This document shows positions 2,589-4,191 of a DNA stretch of 6,371 bases, one piece after another. The DNA lies in IMG/VR virus record IMGVR_UViG_2582580933_000012, positions 1 to 6,371 of that record; one strand, given 5' to 3'. A program made the translations under genes and the position numbers. The stretch's first letter is position 1. Every line of letters begins with the position of its first letter. Under the pieces are notes generated by a model. The model saw only the letters and a program-made list of their open reading frames with translations. It was not told where the DNA came from and searched no databases. This DNA is from a virus (lineage: Duplodnaviria; Heunggongvirae; Uroviricota; Caudoviricetes).

Positions 2589-2618
2589 TTGCGTACGCGT
2601 TAGTGATTTTTTCATAAT
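2589..2618 (+). promoter_or_regulatory. Candidate sigma70 promoter for the plus-strand cassette (-35 TTGCGT, 18-bp spacer, -10 CATAAT)
   Basis: Hexamers at 2589-2594 and 2613-2618, about 45 nt upstream of the cassette start codon; SD AAGGA at 2651-2655. Moderate match only. Confidence 0.35.
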
Positions 2619-2663
2619 TATCTGTATCCTGTGGCTATTTCTCTTGCGCAAAGGATGCTTTTG

Positions 2664-3542
2664 ATGACGCAGCAACTCGAAAACATGCCAATAACAGAAA
2701 TCGAAATTGCCTACGGTGGAGAGGCATACGCAGATAATCAGATCGACGCGAAAACATTAGGCGAAGCCTTAACCTCTCTTAGTGCCCTGATTGAACACGC
2801 CGAAAAAATAATTAATGGCGAAACAGCAGAGCCGAAAGTCAACATCAAGGCAACAAAAGAAGGTTCATTTACTTTGCTTGTTGCTGTGATGGGGAGCATA
2901 AAAACTATTAACGCCCTTGGCCTCGTTGCAGGTGGTGGAGTTGCCGCAGGTGGCGTACTCGGGATAATCGAATGGCTCAAAGGGCGTAAAATCAGCTCCA
3001 TTGTCGTCGATGAACAAAAAGATACAGCAGAAATCGAAGTGGATGGTGAGAAGGTTAAATGCAGTAACGACATTCAAAAATTAATAACCAGTCCAATCAT
3101 CCGAAAAGAACTGGATAAATTAATCTATAAACCCCTGCAGACTGAAAAACCATCCACGTTCTCAGTTTCACAGCAGAAGCATAAGGTAGTCAGGGTGACG
3201 CAAGCTGAAGCAGTAAGTTTTAAAACTGCAAAATCCACCTTTGTCGAGAAAACGCACGTAACGACACGCCAAGCTAATGTACATTTTGCTAATGTTCGAT
3301 TCAAGCAAGGCAAAAGCTGGGATATCATCCTGCCAAATGGCGAAGAAGTTAGCGCATCTATGAAAGATGAGGCTTTTCTTGAACGGGTTGAACACAACCA
3401 AGCAGCATTCTGTAAGGGTGATCTTTTTGTTGTAGAACTGACAGAAACAACAAAAGAAACAAATGGCGCGCTGTCTAAACCACGCTATAGTATTACTAAG
3501 GTTATACGCCACAGAGCGGCGGCAGATAGGAAACTACTTTAA
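2664..3542 (+). CDS. Cassette gene A: hypothetical protein of about 292 aa with internal glycine-zipper hydrophobic segment, no recognisable family
   Basis: Long ORF ending at TAA 3540-3542. Preferred start ATG 2664 (SD AAGGA 8 nt upstream); the track start at 2631 is GTG without an SD. Hydrophobic Gly-rich stretch LLVAVMGSIKTINALGLVAGGGVAAGGVLGIIEWL; remainder hydrophilic. Confidence 0.8.
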   Translation: MTQQLENMPITEIEIAYGGEAYADNQIDAKTLGEALTSLSALIEHAEKIINGETAEPKVNIKATKEGSFTLLVAVMGSIKTINALGLVAGGGVAAGGVLGIIEWLKGRKISSIVVDEQKDTAEIEVDGEKVKCSNDIQKLITSPIIRKELDKLIYKPLQTEKPSTFSVSQQKHKVVRVTQAEAVSFKTAKSTFVEKTHVTTRQANVHFANVRFKQGKSWDIILPNGEEVSASMKDEAFLERVEHNQAAFCKGDLFVVELTETTKETNGALSKPRYSITKVIRHRAAADRKLL

Positions 3543-3545
3543 ATC

Positions 3546-3791
3546 ATGTCAATCCTAAGCATTATGCTTTACATCACTGTATTCATGGCTGTCGCAGCGA
3601 CGGTCAGATATGCTGTGCTTAGGTTCTTGGTTTGGGTAAAGCCGAATGCGTATATTGAACTAACCTACACCGATCCTGAAGGCAGAACCGCTAAAAGGAA
3701 AGTCAGCGTTAGAAACGAAAATGACGCAGAAGAGTTGGCGCTACTGCTACGCGAACTCAAAACTCGCAACGAAGCAAGTGCAGGAAGGTGA
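3546..3791 (+). CDS. Cassette gene B: small membrane protein (81 aa, one N-terminal TM helix, charged C-terminal tail)
   Basis: ATG 3 nt after the A stop. N-terminal ILSIMLYITVFMAVAATVRYAVLRFLVWV is strongly hydrophobic; C-terminus rich in K/R/E. Confidence 0.7.
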   Translation: MSILSIMLYITVFMAVAATVRYAVLRFLVWVKPNAYIELTYTDPEGRTAKRKVSVRNENDAEELALLLRELKTRNEASAGR

Positions 3792-4178
3792 ATGGCGAAC
3801 ACTAAATCCTACCTGGCAATGCAGGCATGGTTTACCACCCTTATCACTGCGGGATTGAATTTCCTTTTTGACTGGCTTCCTCAATTAGCCTTCTTCAAAT
3901 CATTGGCGCCTGGAGCTGCTGTCGGCTTATCTCATGTGGTAATTCTTCTTATCGCTTACATAGGTTTGCCTACGCTTAATGATGTAAGAATGAAAAGGGA
4001 AATAAAAACGGCCAGAAAATTCATCACGAACTGCCTGGCCAACCCTAACCTAACACCAGACCAAATTGCGCACTACAACCAATGTCTTATCGATCTAGAC
4101 AATAAGCTATTAAAAAACATAAATATTCGTATTGATGCTTTATCTGACGCCGAATCGAAAGCTCAAGCAAACGAGTAG
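3792..4178 (+). CDS. Cassette gene C: small membrane protein (128 aa, two predicted TM helices, hydrophilic C-terminal domain)
   Basis: ATG abuts the B stop (TGA 3789-3791, ATG 3792-3794) with SD AGGAAGG at 3782-3788. Hydrophobic segments AWFTTLITAGLNFLFDWL and AAVGLSHVVILLIAYIGLPTL. Tandem stops TAG TAA. Confidence 0.7.
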   Translation: MANTKSYLAMQAWFTTLITAGLNFLFDWLPQLAFFKSLAPGAAVGLSHVVILLIAYIGLPTLNDVRMKREIKTARKFITNCLANPNLTPDQIAHYNQCLIDLDNKLLKNINIRIDALSDAESKAQANE

Positions 4179-4191
4179 TAACAGTCATAAC

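Follow-up and report, generated by a model that had tools for sequence, protein, structure and literature searches.

A three-gene cassette beside antiterminator gene Q of an Escherichia coli lambdoid prophage is most likely an anti-phage relative of mycobacteriophage MichelleMyBell gp29-gp30

Introduction

What function is served by three genes that lie, tightly packed and on the opposite strand, between the antiterminator gene Q and the tRNA and lysis genes of an Escherichia coli lambdoid prophage? The question is raised by a stretch of 6,371 nucleotides (nt), positions 1 to 6,371 of the IMG/VR virus record IMGVR_UViG_2582580933_000012 (hereafter the window), which is part of such a prophage and which several complete genomes match at 100% identity. 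We refer to the three genes as A, B and C, and to the set as the cassette. The initial annotation of the window, made from the letters alone, could place none of the three proteins in a family, and suggested that the cassette is an accessory module expressed in the lysogen, possibly for defence. As we show here, gene A does have a family: it is matched by the PADLOC candidate family PDC-S42, by NCBIfam NF053583 and by phrog_3243, and is related to gp29 of Mycobacterium phage MichelleMyBell. The proposal of an accessory or defence role gains support from sequence comparison, namely from the PDC-S42 match, the kinship with gp29, the co-occurrence of the three genes elsewhere and the defence-type cargo that related prophages carry in the same slot. 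Judged by these comparisons, the cassette is most likely anti-phage, a three-gene proteobacterial relative of MichelleMyBell gp29-gp30.

Results

Gene A is a distant homologue of MichelleMyBell gp29

Gene A is matched from residue 11 to 288 of 292 by PDLC05015, the PADLOC model of PDC-S42 (E-value 2.8e-53). It is also matched by phrog_3243 (E 2.4e-94) and by NF053583, which NCBIfam names 'LAPAL motif-containing putative phage structural protein' (225.5 bits, with the cut-off at 60 bits; E 8.9e-67). The comparison with gp29 was prompted by the GenBank entry of Vibrio phage PQ189332, in which the A-like gene bears the note MMB_gp29_gp30__gp29. In MichelleMyBell (KF986246), gene 29 (310 amino acids, aa) and gene 30 (67 aa) lie between the lysis cassette and the integrase gene. 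Aligned by hhalign with gp29, an alignment of diverse A-family members gave a probability of 98.8% and an E-value of 1.2e-16 over 280 columns spanning both proteins; pairwise BLASTP of the window's gene A against gp29 gave an E-value of 5e-7 with 22% identity over 274 residues, and gp29 is itself matched by PDLC05015 (E 1.6e-16). Because of these profile and BLASTP matches to gp29 and the shared PDLC05015 model, we treat PDC-S42, the 'LAPAL' family and gp29 as one family, in which, by the alignments, gene A is a full-length, distant homologue of gp29. A tblastn search of phage genomes with a stand-alone family member did not reach the mycobacteriophages; the link to gp29 needed profile comparison.

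The family has many members: at E ≤ 1e-3, a profile built from close homologues of A retrieves 2904 representatives (50%-identity clusters), of which 1470 also pass 1e-10; most of the 150 best matches listed are 280–320 aa long. The 'LAPAL' motif itself is absent from the window's gene A, in which the aligned position, located in the N-terminal helix, reads LGEAL (TLGEALTSL), as compared to DLAPALLA in a stand-alone clade described below. As judged by the alignment, the motif is degenerate in the window's clade and the remainder of the domain aligns.

Pfam contains no significant match to A, B or C. Two sub-threshold signals were kept as leads. Residues 81–140 of gene A weakly match EACC1 (PF19953; E 0.016, 15.6 bits against a Pfam threshold of 23.6 bits), as does another family member (E 0.034), and 13 of the 39 distant A-family members weakly match DUF7946. 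The proteins A, B and C are not among the entries of the DefensePredictor supplements.

A, B and C are conserved as a unit

The initial annotation had proposed co-occurrence of A, B and C at other loci as a check; the co-occurrence is strong and extends over many unrelated mobile elements. By tblastn we compared A, B and C with 43 loci, drawn from NCBI genomes, IMG/VR and other assemblies. At all loci similar enough for tblastn to detect the genes, B directly follows A and C follows B; where tblastn fails, open reading frame (ORF) calling recovers the same layout of ~290, ~80 and 125–132 aa, with matching hydrophobic segments. The triad is kept as a unit at 20–100% protein identity at dozens of loci, and because of this conservation A, B and C are real genes and not chance ORFs. 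Homology to phage structural or lysis proteins, which the initial annotation had named as the opposing outcome, was not found.

The settings of the triad are varied. In E. coli lambdoid prophages it also occupies another site, in the nin region between hok and the DUF968 gene, where it is oriented with the early genes. It is found in a VapE/resolvase island of Enterobacter, at the end of a P2-like tail module in Serratia and also after tail-completion gene S, in a stand-alone chromosomal island with a Mor remnant, and beside the integrase gene of a PM2-like (Vinavirales) Vibrio prophage. In Mu-like prophages it stands directly upstream of holin and SLT genes, co-oriented and tightly packed with them. 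Finally, the order of the window – holin, A-B-C, Q – recurs in a distant phage (L043), whose Q is 44% and whose A is 37% identical; there, 164 nt separate the cassette from the holin start.

Despite this breadth, the exact A, B and C proteins are labelled 'hypothetical' in every source, each of them on ~900–1000 contigs from E. coli, Citrobacter, Klebsiella and Salmonella. The exact cassette is present in 37 of the 5426 complete E. coli genomes; natural lysogens include strains EC-107 and S51. Most E. coli entries show just two hypothetical proteins at the cassette, and in the single E. coli record whose annotation was read completely, gene B is left unannotated by the Prokaryotic Genome Annotation Pipeline (PGAP). 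Gene B nevertheless accompanies A and C at all loci examined.

Predicted architecture of the three proteins

The AlphaFold2 model of gene A, calculated from a 24-sequence alignment, has a mean predicted local distance difference test score (pLDDT) of 81.5 and a predicted template modelling score of 0.73. An N-terminal alpha/beta domain – a strand, a long helix and a hairpin – carries the LAPAL/LGEAL position. Next, at about residues 71–102, comes a hydrophobic segment rich in Gly, LGLVAGGGVAAGGVLGIIEWL, which has a GxxxGxxxG pattern and a Kyte-Doolittle hydropathy of 1.8–2.0. The C-terminal part is modelled mainly as beta-strand, with small barrels that resemble oligonucleotide/oligosaccharide-binding (OB) folds. 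Residues R147, W219, D235, D253 and RHR282–284 of A are invariant. Fold searches with the model returned OB-like barrels and no enzyme fold, and sequence and profile searches of the PDB found no relatives of A, B or C. The weak EACC1 match covers the Gly-rich segment and the strands that follow it; EACC1 has been described as a transmembrane (TM) helix with an unusual patch of small residues, and proposed to be a membrane-associated sensor (Kaur et al. 2020).

B and C have the architecture of small membrane proteins, and both can be aligned across unrelated genomic contexts. Gene B (phrog_27630, E 8e-57) combines an N-terminal TM helix and an invariant Arg21 with a small C-terminal domain of a beta-hairpin and a helix. 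Gene C (phrog_26468, E 6.7e-89) starts with a hydrophobic helix, followed by an invariant Pro40, a strong TM helix at ~41–59 and two charged cytoplasmic helices; its AlphaFold2 model has four helices (pLDDT 72), and the protein probably carries two TM helices and a charged helical tail. Searches of Pfam, PHROG and NCBIfam gave no match of B or C to holin, antiholin or spanin families. The corresponding position in MichelleMyBell is taken by gp30, a small membrane protein with two TM helices encoded directly downstream of gp29. Compared by hhalign with the B and C profiles, gp30 gave probabilities of only 0.3% and 0.4%, respectively.

We also note that MichelleMyBell gp28 (L141, 3729–4109), encoded just upstream of gp29, is a 126-aa protein with one TM helix and a highly charged helical tail. 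In size and layout it resembles gene C of the window; it is a candidate lysis protein or a candidate third component that has gone unrecognised.

A stand-alone sister clade often follows a phage-type repressor

A sister clade of the family consists of stand-alone A-like genes. Its member P0143 matches PDLC05015 with an E-value of 1.3e-88 and adjoins a type III-like pair of ResIII and methyltransferase genes. In 80 metagenome loci we found no conserved B- or C-like genes downstream of the A-like gene. The commonest neighbour is a CI/LexA-type repressor (HTH_3 plus Peptidase_S24), which accounts for 11 of the 148 neighbour proteins. About a dozen of the 80 loci (among them L053, L054, L059, L063, L090–L092 and L095) encode it on the strand of the A-like gene, at a distance of one or two genes upstream; in nine of them it is the directly adjacent gene, with a gap of ~80–150 nt. 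In phage lambda, an exclusion gene likewise lies just downstream of the repressor gene (cI-rexA). A further homologue, ORF19 of Lactobacillus phage A2, is located between the endolysin gene and int. Sites downstream of cI and between endolysin and int are classic for genes expressed in the lysogen.

The gap after Q is a cargo hot spot, and the cassette is dispensable

We examined what E. coli prophages with a Q 83–88% identical to that of the window (L132–L138) carry at the position of the cassette. The alternatives are a single 427-aa gene; a Dcm methyltransferase gene on the Q strand followed by an antisense pair encoding a HEPN-like and a DUF262 protein; a three-gene set including a TIGR04255 protein; and a 408-aa protein with a nucleoid-associated-like protein. 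The DUF262 protein matches two PADLOC models, NsnA (E 5.6e-46) and PD-T4-2_A (E 4e-27). With the exception of the methyltransferase, all of these alternative cargos are antisense to Q. In every related-Q prophage examined, a conserved element and a terminator follow just beyond the cargo, on the Q strand. The simplest reading of these comparisons is that the gap between Q and the element is a hot spot for cargo that is mostly antisense and in part of defence type.

One strain has lost the cassette. In E. coli TUM9757 (L044), the DNA between two copies of the 8-bp direct repeat GATGCTTT is deleted; ~45 nt of the 3' end of C are retained and the backbone is intact. Because of this natural deletion we regard the cassette as dispensable for maintenance of the prophage. 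We had considered TUM9757 as an ancestral empty site and rejected the idea, the retained ~45 nt of gene C marking a secondary deletion.

A conserved control region adjoins the cassette

The element beyond the cargo, here called the Q-linked element, carries the sequence TAACGCGTACGC...CTGTTAAGAGTGG. In relatives of 70–86% nucleotide identity (L026–L031) its blocks are nearly invariant, far above the flanking coding DNA. As read by eye from an alignment, the candidate -10 hexamer TAATCT keeps T1, A2 and T6 in 7 of 7 sequences. The relatives also keep a hairpin and T run at the site of the neighbouring intrinsic terminator, with differing sequences. By sequence, the element and the terminator are probably a Q-dependent late promoter or Q-utilisation region with a tR' analogue, which polymerase modified by Q would pass. 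If this assignment is right, then, as the late promoter probably lies at ~2551–2602, the cassette is outside the late transcript and converges on Q. This qualifies the statement of the initial annotation that the cassette runs antisense to the whole late operon: it holds for the strand, and probably not for a position inside the late transcript. An alternative late promoter at the Q stop codon (TTGATG-18-TATCAT) was rejected, since it shows no conservation beyond coding constraint and the gap between Q and C varies.

Control region, cassette and Q are inherited together. In L026–L031 a homology block corresponding to 2541–4537 is continuous, taking in the intergenic region, A, B, C and Q, and a query of Q plus control region has its best match at ≥ 99% identity in 38 E. 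coli records, of which 37 carry the cassette.

The initial annotation had also credited the cassette with its own candidate sigma70 promoter. Conservation argues for it: in five diverged relatives the -35 hexamer TTGCGT is invariant and the -10 hexamer keeps A2 and T6. Consensus does not: the candidate matches at 8 of 12 positions, which puts it below the threshold of our scan, and the scan found 4 promoter-like sites in total as compared to 4.3 expected from shuffled sequences. TTGCGT is located inside an invariant block of the element and also precedes the other cargos, most of which, as read by eye from the alignment, have a -10-like hexamer of their own 17–18 nt away.

Three further observations concern this region. 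An 8-bp perfect palindrome, GCGTACGC, lies in the invariant block 2587–2602, between the divergent promoter candidates, and could be bound by a dimeric protein, for instance Q or some other regulator. At 2456–2566 on the minus strand, PGAP places a 36-aa 'antiterminator' coding sequence (WP_086259018.1), which overlaps the terminator hairpin and may be spurious. Finally, positions 2400–2543 are 84–97% conserved in ~1000 E. coli genomes, including O157:H7, and may be a conserved leader of the tRNA cluster.

Layout and composition of the window

The features of the locus are collected in Table 1. On the minus strand the gene order is DUF968, RusA, Q, four tRNAs, class II holin, YdfR/DUF1327, lysozyme and Rz, with A-B-C on the plus strand between Q and the tRNAs. 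The three tightly packed plus-strand ORFs of the initial annotation stand at the coordinates it gave: 3 nt separate the stop codon of A from the ATG of B, and the TGA of B abuts the ATG of C, leaving a gap of 0 nt. A GTG at 2631 would be possible as an alternative start of A; the homologues begin at the ATG. The cassette is also, as noted at the outset, more A+T-rich than its surroundings, with a G+C content of 43.4% as compared to 50.6% in the left flank, 52.5% in the right flank and 46.1% in Q alone.

Genes C and Q are convergent, with 13 nt between their stop codons (4178–4192), and the terminator scan detected no terminator between them. Transcripts of the cassette may continue through Q and rusA as antisense RNA, and early transcripts may likewise enter the cassette on its antisense strand. 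The tRNAs are the sole matches in an Rfam search of the window. The tRNA at 2323–2398 on the minus strand, called Met (CAT) by ARAGORN and tRNA-Ile by PGAP, is probably Ile2 with a lysidine-modified CAT anticodon.

Table 1. Coordinates of the cassette and neighbouring features in the window
Feature	Position	Strand	Details
Class II holin gene	1582–1797	-	
Four tRNAs	2089–2398	-	Gly-Thr-Lys-Ile cluster, downstream of the terminator
Intrinsic terminator	2516–2543	-	Stem 2543–2523 plus T run; found by scan; RNA fold z = -3.3
Conserved Q-linked element	2551–2602	-	TAACGCGTACGCAAAA ... CTGTTAAGAGTGGT ... CTTCGCCAC; candidate -10 TAATCT, 2579 to 2574
Candidate cassette promoter	2589–2618	+	-35 TTGCGT 2589–2594, 18-nt spacer, -10 CATAAT 2613–2618
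Shine-Dalgarno sequence	2651–2655	+	AAGGA
8-bp direct repeat GATGCTTT	2654–2661		Second copy 4134–4141 (3' end of gene C); deletion end points
Gene A	2664–3542	+	ORF of 292 aa
Gene B	3546–3791	+	ORF of 81 aa
Gene C	3792–4178	+	ORF of 128 aa
Antiterminator gene Q	4192–4551	-	PF06530, E 1e-45; PGAP start 4542; convergent with C

Discussion

We favour the reading that the cassette is, by analogy, a lysogen-expressed abortive-infection or exclusion module of the gp29-gp30 type, in which A would be a toxic sensor-effector, B and C its membrane partners and the inner membrane the target; we hold this to be probable, well short of certain. The analogy draws on MichelleMyBell. As summarised by later papers citing Dedrick et al. 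2017, gp29-gp30 consists of a toxic protein and a putative membrane protein that defend against lytic phages by a mechanism described as unknown (PMC11856565), and the system behaves as typical abortive infection, where adsorption and injection proceed and phage production fails (PMC6426606).

How might such a module operate? In the lysogen, the cassette would be transcribed from its own promoter, divergently from the late-promoter region. A, a cytoplasmic and presumably non-enzymatic protein with a glycine-zipper segment and OB-like barrels, could serve both as sensor and as toxic effector, while B and C, as small inner-membrane proteins, would anchor A at the membrane and restrain it or relay its signal. 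Upon infection by another phage the complex would be released or activated, membrane function damaged and the infection aborted. When the resident prophage is induced, early transcription through Q would meet the cassette head-on, and expression of the cassette may be turned down.

Several observations weigh against this picture. The homology to gp29 is remote (22% identity by BLASTP) and gp30 has no detectable kinship to B or C, so the mechanism may differ from that of gp29-gp30. The promoter from which lysogenic expression would start falls below the scan threshold, with its 8 of 12 consensus matches, and the co-orientation of the triad with holin and endolysin genes in Mu-like prophages suggests that it is expressed there in the lytic phase. 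The hydrophobic segment of A may or may not enter the membrane: AlphaFold2 confidence is low in this segment, and in some relatives the segment is more polar. Among the 148 neighbour proteins of the stand-alone clade a mere handful match PADLOC models, and we therefore do not claim an association with defence islands from our own data. Finally, literature searches on PDC-S42, 'LAPAL motif', DUF7946 and the accession numbers retrieved nothing: no paper mentions the cassette, and no experiment on it or on any proteobacterial member was found.

The main rival is a role in lysis or late development, in which A-B-C might, for example, adjust when the holin acts, block lysis upon superinfection or reshape the envelope. 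The cassette does lie between Q and the lysis genes, both in the window and in L043; in Mu-like prophages the holin and SLT genes follow directly on the triad, in the same orientation; the MichelleMyBell and Lactobacillus A2 members follow just after the lysis cassette; and C, with its two hydrophobic helices and charged tail, has a holin-like layout. We nevertheless consider this role unlikely. In the lambdoid cases, cassette and lysis genes are on opposite strands and the late transcript apparently does not include the cassette, and the triad or its family also occurs far from lysis genes – in the nin region, the VapE island, at the P2 tail end, in the chromosomal island and downstream of cI. 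No match to holin, spanin or endolysin families was found, a natural deletion exists, and the space beside the lysis genes is a known site of morons.

Toxin-antitoxin or fitness, regulatory and structural roles are less likely still. A toxic A neutralised by its membrane partners could make the cassette an addiction module that stabilises the prophage, or a moron that alters the envelope to the benefit of the host, in either case with no anti-phage role. The description of gp29 as toxic in the secondary accounts cited above, the tight coupling of the genes, the mobility of the cassette among many kinds of element and the hok-type modules of the same prophages are in keeping with this explanation; we find it doubtful, however, as the single tested relative gives phage defence according to those accounts, and as slot and family go with defence-type cargo and defence-embedded positions. 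The two ideas overlap in any case, toxin-antitoxin and abortive-infection roles not being mutually exclusive. A regulatory role, whereby convergent transcription would damp leaky Q expression and stabilise lysogeny with the proteins being secondary, could appeal to the 13 nt between the stop codons of C and Q without a detected terminator, to the inheritance of Q, cassette and control element as one block, and to the alternative cargos, which are likewise antisense to Q. The three proteins are, however, conserved at the amino-acid level in contexts that lack Q, from which it follows that selection acts on the proteins, and we regard a primarily regulatory role as very improbable. That gene A encodes a structural protein of the phage is suggested by nothing more than the name of the curated NCBIfam family, and is hardly credible. 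In the loci read, A is never inside a head or tail module, and next to tail genes it stands at the edge of the module; in the window it runs antisense to the late genes, and elsewhere the family occurs downstream of cI, in chromosomal islands and in a PM2-like phage, which is non-tailed; and no structural-protein fold or family matches it.

With the gp29-gp30-type defence module as the preferred reading, what is new? In kind, the system is known: gp29-gp30-type prophage defence, listed in PADLOC as PDC-S42. New are the proteobacterial arrangement of three genes, in which B and C accompany A; the explicit recognition that PDC-S42, 'LAPAL' and gp29 belong together; the wide extent of the family; and the definition of a cargo slot between Q and the probable late promoter. 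Five separate labels are thereby joined – PDC-S42, NCBIfam 'LAPAL', PHROG 3243, the weak DUF7946 matches and gp29-gp30, the last being validated according to the accounts cited above – and the family of A reaches well beyond Actinobacteria. As the three-gene form resides in E. coli, an easily tested organism, it would offer a tractable model for the mechanism of gp29-type systems, and, in one family of E. coli prophages, the stretch from Q to the Q-linked control element could be mined for further defence genes.

A more far-reaching version is tentative at best. In it, gp29/PDC-S42 proteins would be widespread, non-enzymatic abortive-infection effectors of a mechanistically new type, whose OB-like barrels sense a phage component and whose glycine zipper inserts into the membrane; B and C would gate them in Proteobacteria; and the interval from Q to the late promoter would be a hot spot reserved for defence, where the cargos share the -35 hexamer embedded in the element and are silenced by head-on early transcription on induction. 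If true, silencing through Q on induction would provide self-immunity with built-in timing.

Comparison with known systems

Closest to the cassette is the MichelleMyBell system itself, MMB_gp29_gp30 in DefenseFinder. Both consist of a gene for a large protein followed by tightly coupled or overlapping genes for small membrane proteins, and both are located in an accessory region of a temperate phage beside the lysis genes. Where MichelleMyBell has a single 67-aa, two-TM gp30, A in the window is followed by two partners, one (B) with a single TM helix and the other (C) with about two and a helical tail; the host belongs to another phylum, and the cassette occupies the Q-to-late-promoter slot in antisense orientation. 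Measured against the two components of MMB_gp29_gp30, the window has a gp29 homologue (by hhalign, BLASTP and the shared PADLOC model) and no adjacent homologue of gp30. A survey with DefenseFinder reported MMB_gp29_gp30 only in Actinobacteria; its text conflates the system with the (p)ppGpp synthetase of Phrann (PMC10482375).

PDC-S42 is one of 145 untested candidates nominated for being embedded in BREX, DISARM or type I restriction-modification loci (Payne et al., bioRxiv 10.1101/2024.01.29.577857). It was put forward as a single-gene system, which fits the stand-alone clade without conserved B or C and differs from the window's clade, in which B and C always follow A.

Lambda RexAB, Sbash gp30/31 and CarolAnn gp44/43 each combine a prophage-encoded cytoplasmic protein of ~280–370 aa with one or more membrane partners, and membrane-acting abortive infection has been proposed for them (PMC6426606). 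RexAB shares with the stand-alone A-like genes a position just downstream of cI, a likeness by analogy only, as A has no sequence or fold similarity to RexA/DUF4747 and its partners have one and about two TM helices, not four. EACC1 resembles A in the Gly-rich hydrophobic segment, to which it weakly matches; the match is below threshold and A has no caspase partner, which makes EACC1 a lead and not a membership.

By location, finally, the cassette is comparable to the lambdoid Q-to-S morons such as stx, nmpC and cspB/F, which are dispensable accessory cargo in the same neighbourhood. Of these, stx is located downstream of the late promoter, on which it depends. Unlike the moron region, the slot in the window is narrower, extending from the Q stop codon to the Q-linked element and terminator, and its cargo in the relatives examined is mostly antisense and partly of defence type.

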